From Moniliella sp. 'wahieum' (taxonomy: Eukaryota): a DNA stretch of 64,000 nt. Positions 4,296 to 63,433 of this stretch are shown piece after piece. Below the pieces are notes generated by a model, which ran no database searches, was not told where the DNA came from, and saw nothing but the letters and a program-made list of their open reading frames with translations. The stretch covers positions 806,001 to 870,000 of the forward strand of contig RSEE01000007.1 in the NCBI GenBank assembly GCA_003971905.1, written 5' to 3'. Numbering within the stretch: the first letter of the stretch is position 1; each line of letters opens with the position of its first letter. The position numbers were made by a program, and so were the translations under genes.

Positions 4296-4462
4296 GGCGG
4301 GCGGATCGGCTGGTGTTGGCCAGCCCATTTAACGGGCCAGCCGCTCCGCTGCTCGGTGCAATGCGGCACGTGCCAGCCACTGCACCTGACCCAGTCTGTG
4401 CGTTCACTCGTCTTCCCCCACCGCTGGGCCTGCCCAACAACCCACAGGCGCTGCTGCCCGCC

Positions 4463-5573
4463 ATGGAGATGCTGTCGTTCAATGTCGACAACGGCTACCT
4501 CGAGGGTGTGGTGCGCGGCTACATGAACGGCCTCCTGACCGCGCCGCAGTTCCAGACGCTGACCCAGTGCGAGACGCTGGAGGATCTGCGCATGCAGCTG
4601 TCGGCGACCGACTATGGCAACTTTCTCGCCAACGAGCCCTCGCCGCTCACCACCGCTGTCGTCCTGGACCGTGCGACGAGGCGGATGGTGACGCAGTTCG
4701 AGTACCTGCGCGAGAATGCCGTGTACCGCTGAGCAAGTTCCTCGACTTTGTCACCTACGCCTACATGATCGACAATGTCATTCTCCTCATCACTGGCCCC
4801 TGCACGAACGCGACACCCACGAGCTGCTGGAGCGCTGCCACCCTCTGGGCTGGTTCGATACCCTTCCCGCCCTCAGCGTGGCCAACACAGTAGACGAACT
4901 GTACCAAACCGTCCTTGTCGAGACGCCGTTGGCACCCTATTTCCGCGACTGCCTCTCCGCCGCCGACCTGGACGACCTCAACATTGAGATTATTCGCAAC
5001 ACTCTCTACAAGGCCTACCTGGAAGACTTTTATCAATTTTCCCTCTCTCTTGGCGGCGTAACATCCGAGGCGATGCAAGACCTTCTTGCATTTGAGGCCG
5101 ATCGCCGTGTCATTTCCATCACCGTCAACAGTTTTGGTACGGGCTTAACCAAGGAGGAACGCGCACGCCTTTTCCCCTCGGTCGGGAAGCTGTACCCGGC
5201 AGGCAACAATGCCCTGGCCCGGGCAGACGATGTGGAGCAGGTCAAGGCGGTATGCGAGATGGTGCCAGAGTACAAATCCTTCTTTGATGCGCCATCTGGA
5301 CAAGAGGAGGCCCAGCTGGACCACCTGGAAGACAAGTTTTCCAAGGAAGAGGTGAGGATCAACAAAATCCTCACCATCCAACAGTTTAACTTTTCCATCT
5401 TTTACGCTTGGACCAAGCTGAAGGAACAGGAGATTCGCACTCTGGGCTGGATTGCCGAGTGTATTGCCCAAGGCGCCCGAGGTACGTCATCTCTCCTTTC
5501 CCCCTTTCTTTTCCACTATCACCTTCCTGACATTTTGTTTGCAGACCGCATTGGGGACTATATCAATGTGTAA
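4463..5573 (+). CDS. VMA6: V-type ATPase V0 subunit d, copy 1
   Basis: [19 protein letters not shown]...[11 protein letters not shown]...[14 protein letters not shown]...ERCHPLG...[19 protein letters not shown]...FEADRR...[14 protein letters not shown]. Intron 5482-5544 (GTACGT..GCAG) gives the end QGARDRIGDYINV*. Two small frameshifts near 4730 and 4800. Confidence 0.97.
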
Positions 5574-5765: not shown

Positions 5766-7970
5766 TTAGTGTCTGTTATGGTTGGGGCGACTGCGTGCTT
5801 TTGGTACAAATGGCTTACAACGCTGCCGCCAGATTGTCGTGTCGCGTGATGAAGAACTTATGGTTGGCTTCGGGCTTCTGAGCAAGGATCGTCTCAATGT
5901 AGCGCTCGCGCTCATCCACCACGTCGGGATGCGGGATGTACGTGCTGGAAAGGGCATGGCGGGACCAACGCATGGCTTGATCCAGGTTGTGGACCTCTGC
6001 CTGGCTCAGATCGGTGCGAGCACAGATGAGATAGTCGAGGCCGAACTTGGACACTTCCTTGGTACTCGGCAAGGGCCCAGAAAGGAATTTGGTGTTGACC
6101 CATCGGTCAAAGCATACCTCGAACAAAACGTTGGTCCGGTCGGACCACGTGCGGGGACCGCGCAATTTGCTGTATCCCTTGCCGTAGTCAGAACCCTCCC
6201 GGGATCGCCCGCCTTTTCCTCGGCAATCTGGGAGACGATGACATCAAGTCGATCTGCTGGGGATCCAGTGTGAGTTCGAGCGTTTGACGAGGGAAGTGCG
6301 CCGTAGCAGCATTGAGGACGTCCTGAAGCACGAGGAGGATCATGCGGAAGAGGGAATCAAACAGCGCTTGGTCGCCGACAAACGTCTTCACCATCTCCTC
6401 TTGCGGCAGATACTCAAACCCAAACACCTGCGCCGTGTGTTGGTAGCAGGCAAACGTGCCGTCCAACTCACCAAGCTTGGCTTGGAATAGATAGGTGAGC
6501 ATCCGGGACCGGATCAGGTCAAACTTTCCCGCTCAAAAGAATTCAGAAGACCAGCCGAATGATGAATCTCATACCCCGATCCCTGCACCCAATCTTCCCC
6601 GTCCCGAACAGCTACCACGCCTCGTGGTTTAATGTTGAACGTCTTGCCGGGTAGGCGGGGATCCATACACGGCGTTGGGGACCGGACCAGGATGTTTCCA
6701 GCCTGGGTCACGTGGTAAGCTCCCGAGCCTTGTATCTCCAATCGAGTGTACGTTATCCCTGTGTGTGCCCTTATGATGACGCCCCTTGGCCAGTCCTCCT
6801 TCTGACGTACAGCGGCCGCTCTTCGGGAGCCTTGTGCTGTGCAGGGGCCTTGACGCTGACCAACACACATACCGCTTTCCTTCAACCCAACACGCAGCCC
6901 ATGCTCCAAATGGATTTTATCCTCCTTCCTGGGACCAAGCCAGGAAAAACGAGCCGCCCCATAAACGACGAAAAGTGGACGCTCTTCCGCCGCCCACCCC
7001 AACACATACTCCCACAGCCGCTGACGGTCGAACCAAGCTGGCAAGTGAGGTGCTGCCATCCAATGTCGAAGCACTCCTTTCGCGTGCACTGGTTCAGCTG
7101 GCCTCCAAGGCCATGTGGTCCCATCCTCTCCTCAGTGAATGCATGCATGCCTCCTGGGTGCAGCGCTCGGAAGAATCCAGTTGGGCCTTGGGCCGCCTCG
7201 CGCACCACCTTTCCGGGTGGGGAGAGGCGTGCCTTTCTCTCCACCTGTGAAGAAAACCGCATGCATTCCCCCACTCCATCCCAGGGGAGCGTAGATGCAA
7301 CTGGTAACGACGAATTGCCCCCACAGTTGCACGGGCCATTGGACCGCTTGTTTGGTCTACTGAAAGAGATGGACCGCGCGCGTGCCCATCGAGCGAGTAA
7401 AATACGTCTGCCGTGGTTATTGCAGAAGGCAGAGGATACTGATTCGGCAGCAGCGACCGGCACTGGACCTGTCGGACTTTTGTCAGGCCGAACCAAGTTC
7501 GGGCGACGAGTGGATGGACCCAAGGGGCAGTAGCTGCGGCGATTCTTTTCGTGGCTTATCGACCCACAGCTCCGAGGGAGAACTAGGGCTGGGAGCAGAT
7601 GACGCTTCACGGACCGGTTGGTTGGACGCTTGTCCGAAGCCGTCTCTGTCATCCCGTCTCTTGATCCCGAGAGCGAAGGGGTGCTCATGTCGGCATCCAG
7701 CACGTCCAAGCTGTGTTTGTCATCCGTCCTCGATCCCGACAGCGGAGGCGTGCTGATGTCTTCCTCCCCTCCCATGACAATGATGCAGGCGGGGCTCGAG
7801 TGGGAGTCGGCAGCAGTGAGTAGGAGCAGCCCTTGCTGTGCTGCATCATCAGCGGTGCCGTGGGAGGCGCGCGCGAGGGCAGGAGGTGTCAAGAGGGAAC
7901 GGAGCGGCGTGACCGATGCGGGCTGTGCGAGTGGGCCCGCGGGTGCTGATGGGAGACGGAAGGAGCATGT
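5766..7970 (-). CDS. PET127: Pet127-like mitochondrial protein, highly diverged paralog (copy 1), predicted nuclease-dead
   Basis: AYHVTQAGNILVRS..CMDPRLPGKTFNIKPRGVVAVR..GSGYEI..GLLNSFERE(K)FDLIRSRMLTYLFQAKLGELDGTFACYQHTAQVFGFEY aligns collinearly with the canonical copy at 61.3-61.75 kb. C-terminus VDERERYIETILAQKPEA..RHDNLAAA also matches copy 2. Candidate intron 6802-6872. Start (~7970) is uncertain. Confidence 0.8.
7648..7760. repeat. Two imperfect ~42-nt direct repeats, 72-nt period
   Basis: gtcatcccgtctcttgatcccgagagcgaaggggtgctcatgtc vs gtcatccgtcctcgatcccgacagcggaggcgtgctgatgtc. On the minus strand these encode DMSTPSLSGSR and DISTPPLSGSR. Confidence 0.8.
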
Positions 7971-8412
7971 GGAAGCAGGAGCAGAGGGGGGGGGTGGAGG
8001 GCTAGGCGCTGGGCTGGGGCGTATGCATATTCAGCGCAGAGAGGGCAAGGGTTGCTTACTTGGCCGCAGTGGTGCTGGTTGTACGTGCGCCACAAGCGAG
8101 AATGCGCGCGAGGATGGCCGATGGCAGTGGCACTGGGCCAGTGTTCAACCTCGTCCTGCGCCGCCGAGCCACGCCTCGACCAGCGCAAAGCTTAATCAAC
8201 ACTCCAATCACCCACGGCGTGCCACATGTCATCTGCACCGAGCTGGCTGTGTGGATTCGGATTGGCCAGTCCCCCAAGGCACGAGGGACTGCCACCATCA
8301 GCGTCTCCAACGGCTCTTTGTTCGGCGCGCGCCCAGGCCACCGAGCTCAGGCACAGGCCCCGCCGCCATCACATCGGCCGCCGTCGGCAACACTCACCAC
8401 TGCACCCACGCC

Positions 8413-20295: not shown

Positions 20296-20789
20296 ACAAC
20301 ATGAGAGCAATTTTCGTTTGGCTCCGTTTCGAATCCATCCTCGTGTACTGTACTTGTGTCTGCGTGTAAGGGAGAATGGAACAGGTGTCAGGCTTTTTGA
20401 AAGAGGAAGACCAGTGATCCCTTTCCGTCCTCGCGATCGTCTTGGATATTGGCTGCAGAGCACGTTGATATGACGTGTGTTTGTATGACTGAATGGGGCG
20501 ATGGTTCCTCGCAATCTAGTGCAATCTTGAGAACGGGGTTCCGCGATCTGGACGTTGGTTTTCAGCAGCTGCTGAGGGCGCTGAGGTTGGATGGGTTTGC
20601 CTCAGCCTGTAGCACATTATGGGTGGGGTTTCCCCTGCTCACAGCTACCGGAATCGGCCGGTCCAGCCCCGGTGGGTTTACCCCAGAGTTTGCTCCACTG
20701 AAATGTTGAGCTGGCCGAGCCGCGCACTGACCCGCCTCAGGCCAGAAAGCTGAAGTACACCTCAACATCTTAGCTCCACCATCCCCGCC

Positions 20790-22604
20790 ATGCTGCTCGC
20801 CCGCACCGGCGCTCATCCACGACGATTGCCTCAGTGCATCAGATGCCTGCACACTTCCTCTCGCCTCTTGACAGTGCCCCGCCCGGTGTACGCGGGGCTT
20901 CCGTACGCGGGCCAGTTCCGCTCGGGCGAGCAAGTGGCTGTGGACCATGTCGTGGTCGGCGGTGGCGCAGTGGGCCTGGCAGTAGGTGCAGCGTTGGCTG
21001 CTCGCTTCCCCTCCAAGAGTACGTATGTCCTTGAGCGTCACGCCCACGTTGGAATGGAAACCAGCAGCCGCAACTCGGAGGTGGTGCATGCGGGGCTGTA
21101 CTACCCTCCCGCATCGTACAAGACGGCTCTGTGTCTGCGCGGGCGGGAACTGCTCTACCGATTCTGTGAGCAGCACCAGGTTCCCATCCAAAAAGTTGGC
21201 AAACTTGTGGTCGGTACCGAACCGGCATATTTTGATCGGATGCTGGCCCATGTAACTTCTTTGCCGGTAGGCTTAGACCTCTTGGTCCCGCCCTACTATG
21301 GCCCTCCAAACCCCCAAAGCAAGGCGTCTAACACATTTGTTCCCCTCGTCCCCGCACCGCTCGAGAAGTTGTCGGGAGACCAAGCGCGGGAATTGGAACC
21401 TGATCTCAGCGCCGAAATTACCGCGGCCATCCTGTCGCCCCAAACGGGGATTATCGACAGCCACACGTACATGCAAACGCTGGTGGACCAACTGGATGCG
21501 GCAGAGAACGCAGAACTCGTGCTTGGGACTCGCGTGGTGGACATTCGTGCTCACAACGACGGGAACAATGGGAATGGGTTTGCCTTGCAGACCATCACAG
21601 GAAGCGTGGAGGAAGCCGCGGCCGAAGGTGTTCCCGCTGATGTTCTCATGGCCAAGGTGGTGATCAATGCTGCGGGGCTCGATGCTCCCCTGCTGATGAA
21701 CCAGCTGCTGCGCTCGGGTACCGGACCCAACCCGACCCTTCCTGGGGAAGTGACGGCAGTGACTAAATCCGGAGCACGATTGATTCGCTTGAATGAACAA
21801 GGGCACCTGCCCGCTTGGCACTGCAAGGGAAACTATGCTTCCTATCCTCGTTCGGCAGGCGGTGTGGGTCAAGTCAAGCACTTGATCTACCCCACGCCCA
21901 ACTTTGGAGGTTCCACGGCCGAGGGAGCGGCTAAGTATTCCCACCAGTCGTTGGGCAGTAAGTCTATCCCCTGTTCCCTCTGCGCTTGCTTAACCAGACT
22001 GCTGACGCTTACTGCAGCCCACCTCACTCTCGATTTGCAAGGCAACATTCGGTTTGGCCCTGACAGCGAATGGCTTTCCCCTCCCAAGGAGGGGGACGAA
22101 GCGGCAGACTACTGGACCGACCACCTTGCTCCCCTCGCCGAAGGGAGCGACCGGCTGAAGCAGATGGGCGAAGATGTCCATCTGTATTTGCCTGCATTGG
22201 CTACCCAAGAGCTGGCACCGGCCTATGGGGGGATCCGACCTAAACTGATTGGTCCACCTTCAGCTCCTGCCCAGGGCGAGGCAGGCTTTGTCGATTTTCT
22301 TCCCTTGTTCCATGCTGCCCGAGGGCTGCAGGACCAACCCCTGTGGCAATTCACCTTGCCCACCTCCCAGCCTGGGCCTACTTCGGGCCCCGCCCCCGAT
22401 GCAGCCGCCCACAATCATGCCGGTGCAGGAGCATTGGTGAGTCTTTTGGGGATTGAGAGTCCGGGATTGACGTCAAGCCTGGCGATTGCAGAGCTGGTCA
22501 CTGCCCGCATTGCGCGCGGCGTATGGGGGGATTATAATCCTTCCTTTCGCCGCAAGGGCAAGACGGAGGACATTGGAGGTGCTGATCTGGATGCGTGGGC
22601 GTGA
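20790..22604 (+). CDS. L2HGDH: L-2-hydroxyglutarate dehydrogenase-like FAD oxidoreductase, mitochondrial
   Basis: VVVGGGAVGLA FAD motif, ETSSRNSEVVHAGLYYP, TGIIDSH, VINAAGL, KGNY, LIYP, GIRPKL, LLGIESPGLTSSLAIAE. In-frame intron 21958-22017 restores SLGTHLTLD. Confidence 0.92.
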   Translation: MLLARTGAHPRRLPQCIRCLHTSSRLLTVPRPVYAGLPYAGQFRSGEQVAVDHVVVGGGAVGLAVGAALAARFPSKSTYVLERHAHVGMETSSRNSEVVHAGLYYPPASYKTALCLRGRELLYRFCEQHQVPIQKVGKLVVGTEPAYFDRMLAHVTSLPVGLDLLVPPYYGPPNPQSKASNTFVPLVPAPLEKLSGDQARELEPDLSAEITAAILSPQTGIIDSHTYMQTLVDQLDAAENAELVLGTRVVDIRAHNDGNNGNGFALQTITGSVEEAAAEGVPADVLMAKVVINAAGLDAPLLMNQLLRSGTGPNPTLPGEVTAVTKSGARLIRLNEQGHLPAWHCKGNYASYPRSAGGVGQVKHLIYPTPNFGGSTAEGAAKYSHQSLGSKSIPCSLCACLTRLLTLTAAHLTLDLQGNIRFGPDSEWLSPPKEGDEAADYWTDHLAPLAEGSDRLKQMGEDVHLYLPALATQELAPAYGGIRPKLIGPPSAPAQGEAGFVDFLPLFHAARGLQDQPLWQFTLPTSQPGPTSGPAPDAAAHNHAGAGALVSLLGIESPGLTSSLAIAELVTARIARGVWGDYNPSFRRKGKTEDIGGADLDAWA

Positions 22605-33879: not shown

Positions 33880-34341
33880 GGTTCTGTGTGCGCAGGGGAG
33901 AAGAGTCAGCGAAGGGCGCGGCGCGGCGGGGGGTGGACGCACATCGAAGAGCTGCGCGGCGGAAGGGGCTGGGCAGGCACAGAGGCAAGGTGGTGGAGAA
34001 AGACAGGCGGCGGGAAACGGCAGGCGTTCGGCTGCAAACCAGGGGGCGGGCGGGCAGGAGCAGCCGCACACTGGCGCCATGCCCACGCTGGTCCGTGTGC
34101 GAATTGAAGTTGGCCACGCCCCAATTCCGCCTGGCGGACGAGCAGCCGGGAGGGAAGGGTGGCCACGTGACGCAACACGTGCGCCTGCCCAGCGCACGAG
34201 CACCATGAGGGGAATGCAACACTATACGAACCACCTCTGCTCCGCAGCGGCTGGGCCAGATAAGCTCCTGGATTGGGCTGCTCAGCCTACGCATTTGCGT
34301 TGCCACCCTTCCCTGGCTGCCTCGCCACCGCCCCCACCGCC

Positions 34342-36190
34342 ATGGCCGACGCCAGCATCACCGCCACCCCCGCACCGTCGCCTTCGTCCCCCCCGGCGGG
34401 CACGAATACCCCACCACTCCCGCCGAGTACACGCCCCTGTCCCAGCTGGGCGAGGGCTCGTTTGGCAAGGTATATCTGATGCAGGTCCAGCGCACCGGAG
34501 AACTGGTTGCCGTCAAGAAGGTGCCCCTTGATGACCCCAACAACTACGAGGGCCTGGAAGACGCGCTGGGAGAAATTGCGCTGCTGATGCGCCACAACAG
34601 CCCCCGCCTGGTCAAGATGCTGGCCTCCTTTGTCTCCCGCTCCAACCTGTGGATCGTGATGGAATACTTGGCAGGCAACTCATGCCTTGCTCTGCTCAAG
34701 GCCCGTGTCTTTACTGAGCCCGAAGTGGGCGCGGTGTGCAAGGCGCTGGTGGAAGCTTTGGACTATGTTCATGTCCAAGCCCAGCAGATCCACCGTGACC
34801 TCAAGGGCGCGAATGTGTTGCTCGCCGAGGACGGGCGCGTGTGTCTGGGCGACTTTGGCGTCGGCGCACAGCTCAACCACTACTTTAGTCACCGGCATAC
34901 CCAGACTGGCACCCCGTATTGGATGGCACCCGAGGTGATCACCGAGCAAGGCTATGACGCCCGAGCTGATATCTGGTCTTTGGGCATCACCGCCATTGAG
35001 CTCGCCAAGGGTGCCCCTCCGCATACTGACTTTCACCCCATGCAGATCATCCCGCTCATTCCACGCGCAGCCCCTCCCATCTTGAACAAGCCCGACGACG
35101 TATCCCGGTTTTCTCCGCTGTTTCGAGACTTTGTCGCCTGCTGCTTAACCAAGAACCCGGCCAAACGTCCGACAGCGGCACAGCTGCGAGACCACCCGTT
35201 CATCCAACAAGCTGGCGCTGACACCGACCTGCTGCCGCCTTTGATTGCTGAGTATCGCACCTGGAAAAGGGAGCAGGATGGGGACCAGCCCTCTCCCGTT
35301 CCAGAGATGACCGCAGCCACCGTCACCCTCAGCCGTTCCTCCAATTGGTCCTTCTCGACCCACACCCACATTGACACCCCCATCCCCGGCGTCACCCACC
35401 CAGCCTCGTTTGCCCCGCCTGAGCTGGACGAAGACGGTTCGTTGGACGGTGACAGTTCTTTCGAGGCAGACGAGGAGTTGAACCAGGCATTGGCCACCTT
35501 GAAGCTGGCCAACCCATCCATGGAGGTAGTAGAGGGTACCCTTCGTCCACCTCCCTTGTCCCGACCTGCGGCCGCTGCCGATGACAGTGCGTCCGGCACG
35601 CCGTGTTCCAATGCTACCGCATGCCAAGATACCAGTGCGCGTGCCCCGGACCTGGCCGGCCAGGATTTGGTCCAGATGCTTCTTCCGGTGCTGCGCAAGC
35701 ACCAGCAGATCGCCACCGATGGCACAGATGGCCAAGCCAACCCCCAAGCTTCGGAGGCGCTCTCCACCATGGCCTCGGGCATGGAGGCCCTGGTCGAAGC
35801 CGATCCAGCGGGTGCATATGACCTGGTGGTGGATATGGTGCTAACACTAAACGAGTATGTCCCCCCTTTTGCCCGCTTCCCTGGGAGTCGAGTGAGGCTG
35901 ACGAGGCTGGATGGTGGCGCAACAGGTCCGACCTGGCCCGGCGCGAAATCGCATCGGGGTTCAGCCGAACGTTGAAACAACGCATCCAACCACCAACGCC
36001 GGCGCCCGCGCCTGCGCCGCTGCGTCACCGCCACTCCCACCTCCCGCACCTGAAACACTCTAGCGAGCACTCCCGCTCTTCCGAAGACAGCGAGACCGTC
36101 CCTGATTCCAGCCCACCCGAGCCTGAACGGCATCCAACGCAAGAACTGTTGTTTGGACGGTGGCTCGATGGCTTGAAACGCTTGCTCTGA
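34342..36190 (+). CDS. STE20-group germinal-centre kinase (Sid1/Don3/MST3-like) Ser/Thr kinase
   Basis: [55 protein letters not shown]. Intron 35855-35925. C-terminal [12 protein letters not shown] motif; no CRIB domain. Confidence 0.92.
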
Positions 36191-43052: not shown

Positions 43053-44719
43053 TTAGATCAGCATCGAGGGCAAGTCCTCCAGGTAGTTCTTGAGCTTGAC
43101 GAGGAAGGTGACCGCTTCACGGCCGTCGAGGAGACGGTGGTCGTACGTCAGGGCGACGACCATGATGGGGCGAATTTCCACCTTGCCATTGACCACCACG
43201 GGTTTCTCCTTGATACCGTGCATGCCCAAGATGGCCGCGCCGGGCAGGTTGAGGATGGGCGTGCCAAACAGCGACCCAAACACACCCCCGTTCGAGATGG
43301 TAAACGTGCCGCCCTGCATGTCCTCCAGGGTCAACTTGCCGTCGCGGGCCTTGGTGCCCAGCGCAGCGATCGCCGCCTCAATCTCCACCAGCGACATGGA
43401 CTCAATGTTGCGCACGACCGGGGTGACGAGACCCTTGGGCGTCGACACGGCAACGGCCAAGTCAACATAATCGTGGTACGCAATCGTGTCGCCCAGACCA
43501 GGGCCCTCGATCTGCGCGTTGGCAGCCGGGATCTCCTTGAGCGCCAGCGCCGACGCCTTGGAGAAGGCACTCATGAAGCCAAGCTTGACGCCAGTCGCCT
43601 TCAACACGGCGTCCTTGTGGCGTGCACGGAAGGCCATCAGGCCGCTCATGTCAATTTCATTGAACGTCGTCAAGCTGGCCGCCGTGTTTTGCGACTGCTT
43701 CAACCGTTCCGCAATGCGCAGACGCATCCGGTTCATCTTGACCCGGTGCACGGCACGGCTGCCAGCCACGGGCTTCTCCTCCACAGGAGCAGGCGCAGCA
43801 TCCTTCTTGGGCGCAGGGCCGCCGGTTTGGAAGGCGCAGCAGGCGCAGGCGTGGGGGCTGCGGAGGGGGCAGGAGCAGAAGGAGTAGGGGCGCTGGCCGC
43901 AGGCGCGGGAGCGGCAGCAGCGGGTGCCCCGCCAGCAGGCGCGTCCGCGGGCTGGATCTTGAACAGCGGGTGTTCCACCTCGACCGTGTCGCCCTCCTTG
44001 GCCAGGGTTTCTTGCACAAAGCCACTCACAGGTGCATTGACGCTCACATCAATCTTGTCCGTCTCGATGCTGGCCACCTCATCGCCCTCCTTGACGTACT
44101 CACCAGGTTGCTTGAGCCACTGCTTCAGCGTGCCTTCCGTGATGGACTCGGCGAGCGAGGGAACGTTGACGGTCTGCACAGGGCCCGTAGCCTTGCCCTC
44201 GCTCGCGCCCGAAGGTGCCGGGGCAGCAGGAGCAGGCGAAGCAGCGGGCGGCTCGGCAGCCTGGGGGGCAGGGGCAGCAGCGCCGCCGGAAGGAGGAGGA
44301 CCGGGCTCAATGATGGCAATTTCGTGGCCGACTTCAATGTTGTCATCGGGGTTGGCCAGCGTCTTGGTCAAAATGCCGCTGACGGGCGCATTGATGCTCA
44401 CGTCAATCTTGTCCGTCTCGACACTGGCGATCTCCTCGCCCTCCTGGACATACTCGCCGGGCTGCTTGAGCCACTGCTTGAGCGTGCCCTCGGTGATGGA
44501 CTCGGCGAGCTCGGGGACCTTGACCGAGTCGAGCGCATACGCAGACGAGTGGAGGCCACGCAGGGCCAGGGGCGTAGCGGCGGGCGGACGAGCGCACCAC
44601 GAGGCGCGGCGGCCAGGCTCAGCGCACGGGCGGCGGGGGAGGGGGGCGCGGGGGAGGATGCGGGGGCGGGCCGCAAGGACGCGGGGAGCGGAGGGGCGGA
44701 GCAGGCGAGGCGCAAGCAT
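43053..44719 (-). CDS. KGD2: Dihydrolipoamide succinyltransferase (E2 of 2-oxoglutarate dehydrogenase) with two lipoyl domains
   Basis: Presequence MLAPRLLRP. Two [20 protein letters not shown] lipoyl domains, then [45 protein letters not shown] and [15 protein letters not shown]. Confidence 0.97.
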
Positions 44720-45487
44720 GGCGGCGACGCGGAGGGGAGCAGCGGTGGTTGGCAGAGCCAGGAGGTGGAGGTGGCTGGCTGCCCAGAAGGTTGCCCAGCG
44801 CTGCACAGACCCAGCCAGCCACCGCCCACCGACGTCATCGATCGCTCATCCGCACCGCGCTGGCACCGCGCCGGTCTGTCGGGCGGCACGTGGCAGCCCT
44901 GCACCCCTGGGTGCAGTGGATGCGCACGCTGGTGCTGAGCGCTGACGCGCTGACGGCAGCGCTGCGCTTGCCTCCGCCTGACTAATTGCCCGTGACCACC
45001 CGCGGCACACTGCCTCTCCGTCGCGCTCCCGCCTATAATCTTCCGCCGCCGCACACCGCTTGCAGCCGCTCCCGGGCCCCTCCGACAGCTCGCCGCATTC
45101 CGCCCAGCCTGTTCCGCCGCCGCACGTCTCCGTGCTTACGTTTCCAGCTGCAAGGAGTGGGCGCATGCATGCCGGCCCAGTCCAGCTCATCGATCATCCG
45201 CACCGACGAGTGGGCGCCGCTGTTGCAATGTTCACGCCATGCGCGGAGAAGTGTGGGTGGCCGTGGAGAATTATCGCTGCGGAGGAAGCAACGCCGATGG
45301 GCGGACATGCGCACAGACTGCCCCTGAGCCTGTCGTCGCGTTCACGTTTCGCCGCGTAGTCAAGCGGACTTGGCTGGGCCCACACACACAGGTGCCGCCG
45401 GCAGCAGCCCCTCCCTCCCTGTCTCTCCACCACCACCAACCACTACCTTCCTCCCCTCCCTCCCCTGTTGTCTTTGTTGTTCCCGCC

Positions 45488-58848: not shown

Positions 58849-59233
58849 GGGGTGGGGGTGAGACGGTCTGGCAAAGTGGCACGGCGGACAGCGGAGATGT
58901 GAGTGTCCGTGGGCCATTTGATACCGCGCCGCGTGTGGGATTCTTCTCCGTCCTAGCAGCTGGACAATAAATCGTCACGTTACGCCGCGGCACACACCCG
59001 CCGCTTGCAACTTTCAATCGCAGCCCACTCGAAGTGAAATGTGCAGCTCCTGTGGGGGCGCTTACGGCAGCCAGTTCGACCCGCGGGCGACCAGCAGAGG
59101 CCGCGGCCGATAGCAACGGCGCCGATCATCGAATCGACACCGAGCATCATCGACATGCTTCATCCTGGCTCGGTGCTCACACCGACACCAACCCACTCGC
59201 GCCGGCCACCCGATCCACGTCTGGCTGCCCAGG

Positions 59234-60338
59234 ATGGAGATGCTCTCCTTCAATGTCGACAATGGCTACCTCGAGGGCGTGGTGCGCGGTTACATGAACG
59301 GCCTCTTGACAGCCAGCAGTTCCAAACCCTCACCCAGTGCGAGACGCTTGAGGATCTGCGCATGCAGCTCTCGGCCACCGACTATGGCAACTTCCTCGCC
59401 AACGAGCCCTCCCCCCTGACCACAAGTGTCGTCCTCGACCGTGCCACCCGCCGCATGGTGACTCAGTTCGAGTACCTGCGCGAAAACGCAGTGTACCCTC
59501 TGAGCAAGTTCCTTGACCTCGTCACCTACGCCTACATGATCGACAATGTCATCCTCCTCATCACCGGCACACTCCACGAGCGCGACACACACGAGCTCCT
59601 TGAGCGCTGCCACCCCTTGGGCTGGTTCGACACGCTCCCAGCCCTCAGTGTGGCCAACACTGTCGATGAGCTGTACAGACCGTGTTAGTTGAGACCCCAC
59701 TGGCCCCCTATTTCCGCGACTGTCTCTCGGCCGCGGACCTGGACGACCTCAACATTGAGATCATTCGCAACACTCTACAAGTCGTATCTCGAGGACTTTT
59801 ACCAGTTTTCGCTATCTCTTGGCGGGGGTGACGACCGAGGCGATGCAAGACTTACTGCCTTTGAGGCTGATCGCCGCGTCATCTCCATCACGGTCAACAG
59901 TTTGGTACCAGCCTGACCAAGGAGGAGCGAGCCCGTCTCTTCCCCTCCATTGGCAAACTCTACCCGGCCGGAAACAACGCGTTGGCTCGTGCAGACGATG
60001 TGGAGCAGGTCAAGGCCGTGTGCGACATGGTTCCAGAGTATAAGTCCTTCTTTGATGCCCCGCCAGGACAGGAAGAGGCTCAATTGGACCATCTGGAAGA
60101 CAAATTTTCCAAAGAGGAAGTGAGGATCAATAAAATCCTCACCATCCAACAGTTTAACTTCTCCATCTTTTACGCCTGGACTAAGCTCAAAGAACAGGAA
60201 ATTCGTACCCTTGGTTGGATTGCGGAGTGCATTGCTCAAGGCGCCCGAGGTTCGTATCTTATCCTCTACCGTTGCTATGTGGCGGACACTGATACTGCGT
60301 TTCTTCACAGACCGCATTGCGACTACATCAATGTATGA
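59234..60338 (+). CDS. VMA6: V-type ATPase V0 subunit d, copy 2
   Basis: Same protein as 4463-5573 with a handful of substitutions. Intron 60250-60310 at the identical position after QGAR; ends DYINV*. Several small frameshifts. Confidence 0.96.
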
Positions 60339-60583: not shown

Positions 60584-63433
60584 TTAGTCGTCCTGGCCGG
60601 GGAGTACCCCGACTCTGCAACGCCTCATACCTCAACAAGGGGTCCACCTCCTCCTGTTTCTTGGCGTGCACAGCACCAGCCATGGACAATCCTCGCAGCG
60701 TCCGATCTCCTTGGTGGTGTTTCGATCCATGAAACAGGGGGTTGAGTAGCCGCTTTTGCCTTTTTTCCTGGGTAACGCGATGAAGATCGCCAAGCCTTCC
60801 TTAGTGGTGGGATGGGGCTGATACAGAGGTGGCTTGGGGAAGCGGCCGCGAGACCCTGGTGTCGCTCACGAATGTAGCGCTCCAGCGCTTCGGGTTCTGC
60901 GCCAGCACCGTTCAATGTACCTCTCGCGCTCGTTGATAGCATCCACGTTGGGCAAGTACAGCCGACATCAGGGCACTGGCCTGGTTCGTGGTACGCAGCA
61001 GATGCTTGACTGCTGATTCGCTCAAGTCAGTGCGGCAAAGATGCCGTAGTCCACCTGGAACGATTGCATATCAGGCGGGACAACGAGGGGACCTTTGATA
61101 AGGTTTCCGTCCAACCAACGGTCCAAGTACACCTCAAACAATAAGTTGGACCGATATGCCCAGGTTCTGGGACCGCCGGCCTGGTCCACTCCTTGCCATA
61201 TCGAGTTCCTTCCATACGCCGTTTTAGCGAATTATCCTCCTCCTGGGCAACGTCACACCAGCTTGTCAGTGCGGGTCTCAAAATTGAGTATCAGGGACTG
61301 CTTGGGAAAGTGCTCAGTAGCCGAGATGAGGATGTTCTCCAGAACAGAGACCAGAATGCGGAACGCGCTCGAACAGATCGTCGGAACCGGTCAAAGTTTT
61401 GGCCAAATGTTCGCGGGACATATACTCAAACCCGAACACGGTTGCCGTGTTGTGGTAGCAAACAAAGATGCCGTCCATGCCTCCGATGCGGACTTGGAGG
61501 AGATACTTGAGCATCGTTGCGCGCATCATGTCAAACGTTTCCCGTTCATACGACTCGAGTAACCCTTTGGCTTGACGGATTTGGTACCCCGAGCCCTCAA
61601 GCCAGTTGGCCCTGTCCTTGCGAACTGCCACCACTGCGCGCGTCTTGAGGTCAAACGTGCGCCGGGGCAACCGAGGATCTTGGCAGTCGAGCTGGGAGCG
61701 CATCATTAACTTGCCCGCTTGGGTAAAGTGGTAGGCTTCTGCATTTTTGCGTTCTTCCTCCGACAAACGCCACGAATGCAAGCGCGAGTGTTTCTCAAAC
61801 TGTTCGGGCGTGGAGACAAGCATTGTCTCCATACTTTGCCCAGCGCTGACAAGACGTAGTTCTCCGCCGTATCACCCGTTTTGTTGTTGTCAATGCCATA
61901 TGTCTCAGTCGCACTGTCGTAGACTAACTTTACCGATGCGGGCAAGCGGGCCCCACGGTAAATCCACCAAGCTAAAAGAAGATGGGTTGTCAGTATCAGT
62001 AATCAGGACGGGGCAAAGTGCAAAATGAAAGGGAAAAGGACACACATTTTGCAACGCCTTGTAGTTGGATCCAAAGTTGGAAAAATCGGGAGGCTTCCAT
62101 CCCATGACGAGAAAGTAGATGTGGGACAGCAGCCTGTCATAGTCGAGGTCGATCCAAAGAATTTAGCCTTGTGTTTGACCGTGAGTGTTTTCAGCTGTGC
62201 GTCACGGGACGCAGTGATGTACTCGGTGCAGTGTCCGGGTCAAATAGGTCAAAATCGAGAATCTTGCGAATGCGTGGGTCGTAGTTGTAAATCTGGGTGC
62301 GAGGATCTTTTAGCCACGAGACACCCGGATTGAATAAGACACGGTCCAATCCGTGCGCAAGGCGCGGTGGCTCACTTGGTCAAGGGAGCCACCTCCTTCA
62401 ACTGTACTTCTTCGGGGACAATGGAACCCTTGCAATTCCACCGTTTAGGAGACGAAGCAGCCCTTTGTCGTTAATATTGACCTGTAAATGTTTGCCTGCA
62501 ATGGCATCGGCGCGAGTGAAAAGATGAGGCTTGGTGAGCATGGCTGGGCGTTCACGATAGACGTCGTAGAAGAGCGGCCGCTGGAGCGGACTGTTGCTCG
62601 TATAGCCCACGTCGCTGGGCGAAACAAAGCTATCGTCAAGGTTGTAGACCCCTGGGCCCGGAGAGTGTGGAAGACGCTCCAGTACGTTTCCGCACAGCGT
62701 TAATCGCGTCTTGGAGGCGCCTGTTGGCGTACGCTTCAAATTTTTGTTCGTCCTCGGGTGTATCGGAAGCGCCGGACGCTTCTTCTTCCAATCAGACGAG
62801 GAAGATGGCGATCTCGAAGTGTCTTCGGTTTCTCGGCTGCAGTCTTAGGCCGGCGGATTGAAGAGCCTGCTTCTGTACCGCCTCGAGTTGCTGTTGGGCC
62901 AACTTGATTTGGTCTTGTAGAGCTTCGACGTGTGGCAAGGGGGATGCATCCGTCCAGGATCGTGGTCGCATATCCAGTTTGGAAGCAAGGGGGCGAGAAA
63001 GCACTGGGCTCGGCTGGGAAGGGCCAGGGGCGATAGCCGCCTGAATGGCCGCATTAGATGCTTGCCTGGCACCGGAGGAAATGTTGTGAACTAATGGTCG
63101 TTTCTGGGGGGAGTGGCGATATTTAGGCGTGGGTGTGGGTGTGAGCTTGGCTTTGGGCGGGGACTTGAGATAAGGCTTGGACTTGGGCTTATCTGGAGCA
63201 TACGGGCGTGCGGTCGAGGGCGATGGGATGTCGGGGAAGGGGAAGAGGACGGGGAAGAGGAAGGGGAAGAGGCAGGAGAAGAGGAAGAAAAAAACGAATA
63301 GGAAGACGAGGACAAGGCCGCTCGACAGGCCGGCAGCGGGGCGACGCGAGCGCGTGGATGGGGGTGTCCGGAGCATGCGAAGGCCCATCTGCCTGCGGGA
63401 GCATGGCGGGCGCGCACCTCTTTGCCACAGCAT
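60584..63433 (-). CDS. PET127: Pet127 mitochondrial 5'-3' exoribonuclease, canonical copy 2
   Basis: Arg-rich presequence (MLWQRGAR..). HGLDRVLFNPGV, FFGSTSTMT, LGK(S)METML, AYHFTQAGKLMMRSQLDCQDPRLP..TFDLKTRAV, YERETFDMMRATMLKYLLQVRIGGMDGIFVCYHN..VFGFEY. Intron 61972-62045; ends approximate. Confidence 0.92.

Follow-up and report, generated by a model that had tools for sequence, protein, structure and literature searches.

Does a fungal genome that carries two copies of Pet127 keep both of them as nucleases? Pet127 apart, no 5'-3' exoribonuclease is known from fungal mitochondria, and opinions differ on whether it acts mainly as an enzyme or as a regulator (PMC9014873 and PMC8555793). We addressed this question in a 64,000-nt stretch of Moniliella sp. 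'wahieum' (contig RSEE01000007.1, positions 806,001 to 870,000), hereafter the window, which contains both Pet127 copies considered here, a canonical copy (PET127-B) and a diverged one (PET127-A). On balance, we think it probable that PET127-A belongs to a lineage of Pet127 paralogs that is old and has no catalytic activity.

Replaced catalytic residues in PET127-A

An earlier note on this DNA described a diverged Pet127 paralog at the locus, and this is borne out by profile matches. PF08634 matches PET127-A in two reading-frame pieces, positions 130-199 and 200-274, with 49 and 62.8 bits (cut-off, 25). The match covers positions 130-274 of the full-length domain (1-274) only, and homology continues into the conserved C-terminal extension. 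A family hidden Markov model (HMM) made from 115 Pet127 proteins gave pieces of 80.6, 106.2 and 21.3 bits and, with filters off, found PET127-A at positions 380-541 and 595-676 only. In frameshift-aware alignments PET127-A is 47-52% identical to close relatives (P0001, P0004, P0008, P0040 and P0121) and 46% identical to PET127-B, from which it differs at 54% of 303 residues. The C-terminal scaffold is collinear with that of the canonical copy, as the note had it: DPRLP, GSGYxI, FERE/FD, VFGFEY and ERERYIE align and follow in the same order in PET127-A and in the copy at 60.6-62.4 kb.

The key residues of the enzyme, a PD-(D/E)XK nuclease, are, in T. marneffei numbering, E340, Q386, D388, D401, L402 and K403. 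The substitutions Q386A and D388A each abolish the activity of T. marneffei Pet127 in vitro, the C. albicans D375A allele is equivalent to a deletion, and the Gln and Asp were reported to be strictly conserved in every ortholog that those authors found (PMC9014873, accessible text). Our own family alignment agrees with this pattern. Of its 115 rows, 114 have the Glu of motif I, 114 the Gln and 114 the Asp of motif II, and all 115 the Asp and Lys of motif III; the single exception at Glu, Gln and Asp is P0008, a member of the inactive clade described below.

PET127-A departs from this set. PET127-B, P0001 and P0002 have RSQLDC and TFDLKTRA, and PET127-A has RSPTPC and TFNIKPRG; the changes from RSQLDC to RSPTPC and from TFDLKTR to TFNIKPR that the earlier note had read by eye are exact in the frameshift-aware alignment. 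The family HMM, with filters off, found no LGKSME-type helix with the motif I Glu in PET127-A. Set against the catalytic residues of the family (Glu; Gln-x-Asp; Asp-Leu-Lys), PET127-A thus offers P-T-P, N-I-K and no Glu helix that could be found, and the proposed loss of catalytic residues stands: Gln and Asp of motif II are replaced, as is Asp of motif III, and no Glu of motif I was found. PET127-A is a homolog of an active enzyme without the catalytic residues, as expected of a pseudoenzyme, and because essential residues are replaced it is predicted to be catalytically dead.

A clade of predicted inactive copies and an old duplication

The same kind of loss occurs in three open reading frames from other public assemblies, P0008 (467 aa), P0040 (332 aa) and P0121 (362 aa). 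P0008 was spotted as the breaker of otherwise invariant columns, and P0040 and P0121 came from a search of representative sequences. The motif II Gln/Asp pair is replaced by P/F in P0008, P/P in P0040 and T/P in P0121, and the position of the motif I Glu is occupied by K in P0008 and R in P0040. The motif III Lys is kept in PET127-A and P0008 and is Arg in P0040 and P0121; P0008, P0040 and P0121, three of the four inactive copies, retain the Asp of motif III. After a common loss of motif II, the site appears to have eroded along different lines in different copies. An exhaustive representative search with the 142-residue C-terminal piece of PET127-A returned four matches, led by P0002 at 45%. 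When a profile of the inactive copies was used as the query, the 13 proteins at E <= 1e-20 included three of the inactive type and no new member.

Phylogenetic analysis groups these copies. We used a maximum-likelihood (ML) tree of 34 rows and 580 columns under a site-heterogeneous model, the kind least prone to long-branch attraction. PET127-A, PET127-B and five close relatives form one group (100/100), within which PET127-A, P0008, P0040 and P0121 lie on one side of a branch (100/99) and PET127-A is sister to P0121 (97/95). Because the loss is common to a clade with P0008, P0040 and P0121, it appears to be old, in a lineage that seems to have stayed open-framed on long branches. A recent origin of PET127-A from the local canonical copy was also considered and was rejected, as forcing A and B together costs 70 log-likelihood units (approximately unbiased test, p 6.5e-5).

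Terminal branches are 0.51 for PET127-A, 0.83 for P0040 and 1.24 for P0121, and those of the inactive lineage as a whole span 0.4-1.24 versus 0.12-0.15 for canonical copies. Conservation within the lineage is nevertheless considerable. In 119 canonical-type rows, 53 columns reach at least 90% conservation; all four inactive copies keep 25 of these, and three of the four keep another 10. Six changes are specific to the clade, with the same new residue in at least three of the four copies (Q to P, D to P, L to I, A to G, M to L and I to T). As a separate observation, the stem shared by the seven Pet127 sequences of this group, canonical and inactive together, is very long (1.12 changes per column) and lies beside Tilletiaria-like sequences; rapid evolution in this unsampled group extends to all of its Pet127.

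The gene context points to how the pair arose. Each PET127 copy is convergent with a copy of VMA6, and VMA6-A and VMA6-B have the same orientation and a constant offset of about 54,770 nt. They share 326 of 338 amino acids (96%), with dN 0.022, dS 0.84-1.21 and dN/dS 0.018-0.028. The segment with VMA6 and PET127 was duplicated, apparently long ago, because VMA6 dS is about 1 and the similarity of the two copies ends at exon borders. Fungi usually carry one gene for V-ATPase subunit d, and a retained pair is unusual; here both copies are kept under very strong purifying selection (dN/dS about 0.02 at dS about 1).

PET127-B has the features of a canonical gene. Its catalytic residues are kept (Glu at 61829-61827, Q-L-D at 61694-61686 and D-L-K at 61652-61644), and it has one intron of 74 nt (62045-61972). 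PF08634 matches it at positions 1-31 and 94-253, one piece scoring 217 bits, and the family HMM at 202-543 and 595-700. The closest database proteins are P0001 (87%) and P0002 (82%), both from other assemblies, and the closest named ones are from Ustilaginomycotina (Tilletiaria, Moesziomyces and Malassezia) at about 59-60%.

Both duplicated segments are interrupted by frame breaks. The frame of PET127-B shifts by a single base at least 14 times within about 1.6 kb, and no additional sequence separates the frames; the terminal branch of this copy in the ML tree (0.15) equals those of its orthologs (0.12 and 0.13), which points to a working gene that is badly assembled. The VMA6 exons differ by eight frame-breaking indels, two in A (4726 and 4798) and six in B, several of them in short homopolymers. 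These are likewise read as assembly errors, because genes with dN/dS of about 0.02 cannot both be broken. Each of the three breaks in PET127-A is compatible with one missing base, and their number (3 in 903 nt) compares with 2 in 1035 nt in VMA6-A (Poisson P(>=3) = 0.25); they fit the local rate, which suggests that they too are assembly errors. Indel errors are uneven along the window, with about 6-9 per kb at 59-62 kb and about 2-3 per kb at 4.4-6.7 kb, and no such indels in a 588-codon frame at 34209-35972 or a 616-codon frame at 20754-22601. The features discussed here are collected in Table 1.

Table 1. Positions, in window coordinates, of the two VMA6/PET127 segments and of features in and upstream of PET127-A
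Feature	Position	Strand	Remarks
VMA6-A, V-ATPase subunit d main exon	4453..5487	+	PF01992; convergent with PET127-A
PET127-A	5815..6720	-	Pet127-homologous part, AYH through stop codon TAA 5817-5815
Frame-break span of PET127-A	6209..6525	-	Three 1-base breaks: 6525, ~6256-6262, 6209
Nuclease motif III remnant	6619..6642	-	TFNIKPRG in place of TFDLKTRA; Asp to Asn, Lys kept
Nuclease motif II remnant	6667..6684	-	RSPTPC in place of canonical RSQLDC; Gln and Asp both Pro
Open frame continuing the AYH frame	6721..7131	-	137 codons; no detectable Pet127 homology
Ser/Pro/Ala-rich open frame	6885..8030	-	382 codons; no Pfam or family-HMM match
VMA6-B, second copy	59224..60255	+	Convergent with PET127-B
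PET127-B, conserved part of canonical copy	60600..62380	-	Pfam, alignments

Elsewhere in the window, a direct repeat (43866-44165 and 44220-44519, 70%) corresponds to the two lipoyl domains of a 2-oxoacid dehydrogenase E2 gene (43736-44845, minus strand) and is an ordinary domain duplication.

The N-terminal half, selection and decay

Upstream of AYH, searches for the rest of the family domain were negative. With filters off, family HMM positions 202-379 had no match in copy A, and no further piece of it turned up anywhere in the window. When the N-terminal 201 residues of PET127-B were compared with 6721-7400, the best local score was equalled or beaten by 26 of 60 shuffles, and the N-terminal parts of P0008, P0040, P0121 and P0001 gave no match better than E 0.6. 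Several details of the earlier note give way at this point. It had proposed that only a segment of about 50 aa was missing, with VHSIGD running almost directly into AYH; the whole conserved N-terminal half is undetectable, and VHSIGD and AYH are in different reading frames. The collinearity seen between GFFRALHPGG and GLDRVLFNPG, and between GGLAKG and GGFTVG after a shared intron position, is at chance level by shuffle control, and the idea that the fold is retained is not supported, the N-terminal half of the domain being undetectable. The copy in this genome may be a shortened version of the inactive lineage.

The sequence just above AYH may nonetheless be coding. The 137 codons that continue the AYH frame would be open by chance with a probability of about 0.005, estimated from local base composition. 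Candidate starts in this frame are ATG codons at 7059 and 6870, and the 24 residues that follow the ATG at 6870 include five basic and no acidic ones. The stretch at 6721-7131 may therefore be the N-terminus of PET127-A, and at most could be conjectured to resemble a presequence. An 82-nt interval (6810-6729, minus strand; GTACGT...AG) ends just before AYH and is a candidate intron. An added intron had been suspected there from a comparison of SRPLHSTRLPKSGR with SRLHSWRLSEEERK across the interval, and this was set aside with a score at chance. The Ser/Pro/Ala-rich frame farther upstream has a weak positive coding score only at about 7870-7680 and contains a near-repeat (ISTPPLSGSR / MSTPSLSGSR); it may be a gene, an upstream exon of PET127-A or a chance frame.

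The pattern of change in the homologous part suggests that it has not been drifting freely. PET127-A has no in-frame stop in 303 aligned codons. When neutral change from PET127-B was simulated, 0 of 2000 runs stayed free of stops at d=0.4, where the 46% identity seen in the data is reproduced; 3 of 2000 did so at d=0.3 and 18 of 2000 at d=0.2. Identity to PET127-B at codon positions 1, 2 and 3 is 0.59, 0.72 and 0.39 (z=3.6 for position 2 versus 1), and the excess of position 2 over position 1 was matched by no neutral simulation. We also counted retention at the 243 of 303 aligned codons at which PET127-B equals P0001, by conservation in the family. PET127-A retains 31/46 sites at >=95% conservation, 16/24 at 80-95%, 34/65 at 50-80%, 35/82 below 50% and 18/26 in thinly covered columns. 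With the 26 thinly covered columns excluded, 47/70 sites that are at least 80% conserved are retained versus 69/147 less conserved ones (Fisher p 0.006). Between PET127-A and PET127-B, dS is saturated (1.87 by the method of Nei and Gojobori, NG86), and the pairwise dN/dS of 0.26 is only indicative. A copy that had been neutral since the old duplication should be unrecognisable; PET127-A does not look like an old neutral relic, and its lineage has probably been selected.

A number of observations weigh against this reading. About 178 conserved family positions (HMM 202-379) upstream of AYH are undetectable in PET127-A, and a protein that starts near AYH may not fold like Pet127. The codon-usage score is negative upstream of 6720, including 6721-7131, in a scan that discriminates poorly (the canonical copy itself scores between -0.2 and +0.28), and neither a start codon nor a promoter could be assigned to PET127-A. 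Constraint is strongly relaxed, with 15/46 near-invariant sites changed and a dN to PET127-B of 0.48, near half of the saturated dS. Changes at invariant sites are concentrated in the two catalytic motifs (7/12 versus 8/34 elsewhere, p 0.04), in a grouping that was chosen after the data had been seen. The three frameshifts could be real. In the tree, long-branch attraction could inflate support for the clade, and P0008, P0040 and P0121, which are known at the level of sequence, may not be three different species.

Other explanations of the replaced residues deserve consideration. Given the many single-base deletions in this assembly, the loss might be an artefact that polishing would correct into a normal Pet127, a possibility that the earlier note had raised by suggesting that QLD and FDLK might be restored. 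The errors seen are indels and not substitutions, whereas the motif codons of PET127-A differ from the canonical ones by 2 or 3 base changes each, in frame; the motif changes are therefore not indel errors, and polishing cannot restore the residues. The divergence from PET127-B at more than half of the 303 residues and the motif II loss in three sequences from other assemblies also speak against an artefact, which we regard as extremely unlikely. It is hardly more credible that other residues have taken over and the paralog remains a nuclease. The motif III Lys of PET127-A and P0008, and the motif III Asp of P0008, P0040 and P0121, would be available to it, but each of the four copies has Pro, Thr or Phe at both metal-ligand positions of motif II, and a single Ala at either motif II position abolishes activity in the enzyme that was tested (PMC9014873, accessible text). 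The earlier note suggested that the paralog might modulate Rpo41, the mitochondrial RNA polymerase, or the inheritance of mtDNA, roles that in yeast Pet127 are independent of its nuclease activity. This has some precedent, in that a S. cerevisiae nuclease-dead allele (E346, D378, D391 and K393 to Ala) binds Rpo41 like the wild type. The binding, however, needs residues 48-215, N-terminal to the nuclease core, and a fragment of residues 213-800 does not bind (PMC8555793, in the part available). Within that region, conservation between species is limited to residues 178-208 (PMC9014873), and nothing from the N-terminal half can be detected in copy A. Because nothing recognisable remains of the Rpo41-binding region, we consider this role improbable for PET127-A.

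The strongest competitor is that PET127-A is a relic in this genome. The inactive lineage may work in relatives, and here the 5' half would have been lost, maintenance would have stopped recently and the three frameshifts would be real. The lack of N-terminal homology anywhere in the window, the weak coding signal upstream, the frameshifts themselves and the 15 altered sites among 46 invariant ones would all follow. Yet even neutral change of d=0.2 introduces at least one stop in 1982/2000 simulations, and PET127-A has none in 303 codons. Its frameshift rate is no higher than that of VMA6-A, a gene with dN/dS of 0.02, its branch is not longer than those of the open-frame relatives P0040 and P0121, and the frame is open for 137 codons above AYH. 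We treat decay as a genuine but doubtful alternative, and favour membership of PET127-A in a retained inactive lineage.

Fold context and possible role

A sequence search of the PDB found no solved Pet127 structure, and we relied on predicted models. The model of P0003, a canonical relative, has a pLDDT of 90.6 and matches Rai1/DXO nucleases (E 2.6e-9). Its N-terminal half is made up of the catalytic-Glu helix (residues 220-234) and all that precedes it; PET127-A has counterparts of the strands with motifs II and III (270-275 and 287-294) and of all later elements. The P0008 model has the same order of strands and helices, which is weak evidence, as its mean pLDDT is 68.8 and its alignment is dominated by canonical sequences. 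The P0003 model also matches the cap-binding domains of eIF3d (E about 4e-8 to 1e-7), a protein that to our knowledge has no nuclease activity. eIF3d has the DXO/Rai1 fold and binds the mRNA cap, so that this fold can serve as a binder of RNA 5' ends (PMC5311922, accessible text). It is cytosolic, ancient and universal in eukaryotes, and its likeness to PET127-A is one of family fold only, with no other sequence relationship.

Comparison with known systems helps to place the pair. With canonical Pet127 (PF08634; T. marneffei, C. albicans and S. cerevisiae; PMC9014873, accessible text), PET127-A shares homology over positions 130-274 and the C-terminal extension, an origin by duplication, and the DPRLP, GSGY, ERE-FD, VFGFEY and ERERY motifs. 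Unlike it, PET127-A has other residues in place of Gln and Asp in motif II and of Asp in motif III, neither the Glu of motif I nor any of the N-terminal half can be detected, and it evolves 3-10 times faster on the tree than canonical copies. The engineered yeast allele pet127-nd has lost the same catalytic positions, but it keeps the full protein, including the Rpo41-binding N-terminal region, whereas PET127-A has no recognisable N-terminal half and many other changes (PMC8555793, in the part available). In T. brucei, the AdoMetDC prozyme is likewise part of an active/inactive pair that arose by duplication and in which the inactive copy was retained. The prozyme regulates the active enzyme (PMC5201418); any interaction between the two Pet127 copies is hypothetical.

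The following course of events seems to us the most probable. An old duplication of the segment with the convergent VMA6 and PET127 pair would have produced two copies, of which copy B stayed a canonical 5'-3' exoribonuclease. The other copy would have lost the metal-binding Gln and Asp of motif II and evolved several times faster, staying open-framed in this genome and in the three sequences from other assemblies. Its protein could not cut RNA by the known mechanism; it may keep part of the DXO/Rai1-like scaffold and act without catalysis, possibly, within mitochondrial RNA metabolism, by attaching to RNA 5' ends or to a partner protein. We infer that PET127-A is expressed and located in mitochondria and that it has some binding function, and that binding, of either RNA 5' ends or a protein partner, and not cutting, is most likely how the inactive lineage acts. 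Our more specific proposal is tentative: a lineage of smut-related fungi may have kept, ever since an old duplication, a Pet127 pseudo-nuclease that binds or shields the 5' ends of mitochondrial transcripts, or that partners with the active Pet127 and tunes it.

We found no description of Pet127 paralogs, and the accessible text of PMC9014873 contains neither 'paralog' nor 'duplicat'. New here is that P0008, P0040 and P0121 also lack the motif II Gln and Asp and form one clade with PET127-A. If this reading is correct, PET127-A and its relatives would be the first natural departure from the strict conservation that has been reported for the active site of Pet127, and would add an organellar pseudoenzyme to the DXO/Rai1-like fold. 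The lineage would be a mitochondrial parallel to eIF3d, which turned a DXO nuclease fold into a reader of 5' ends. A dead paralog retained beside an active copy would also be a ready-made separation-of-function pair, showing which parts of Pet127 matter without catalysis.

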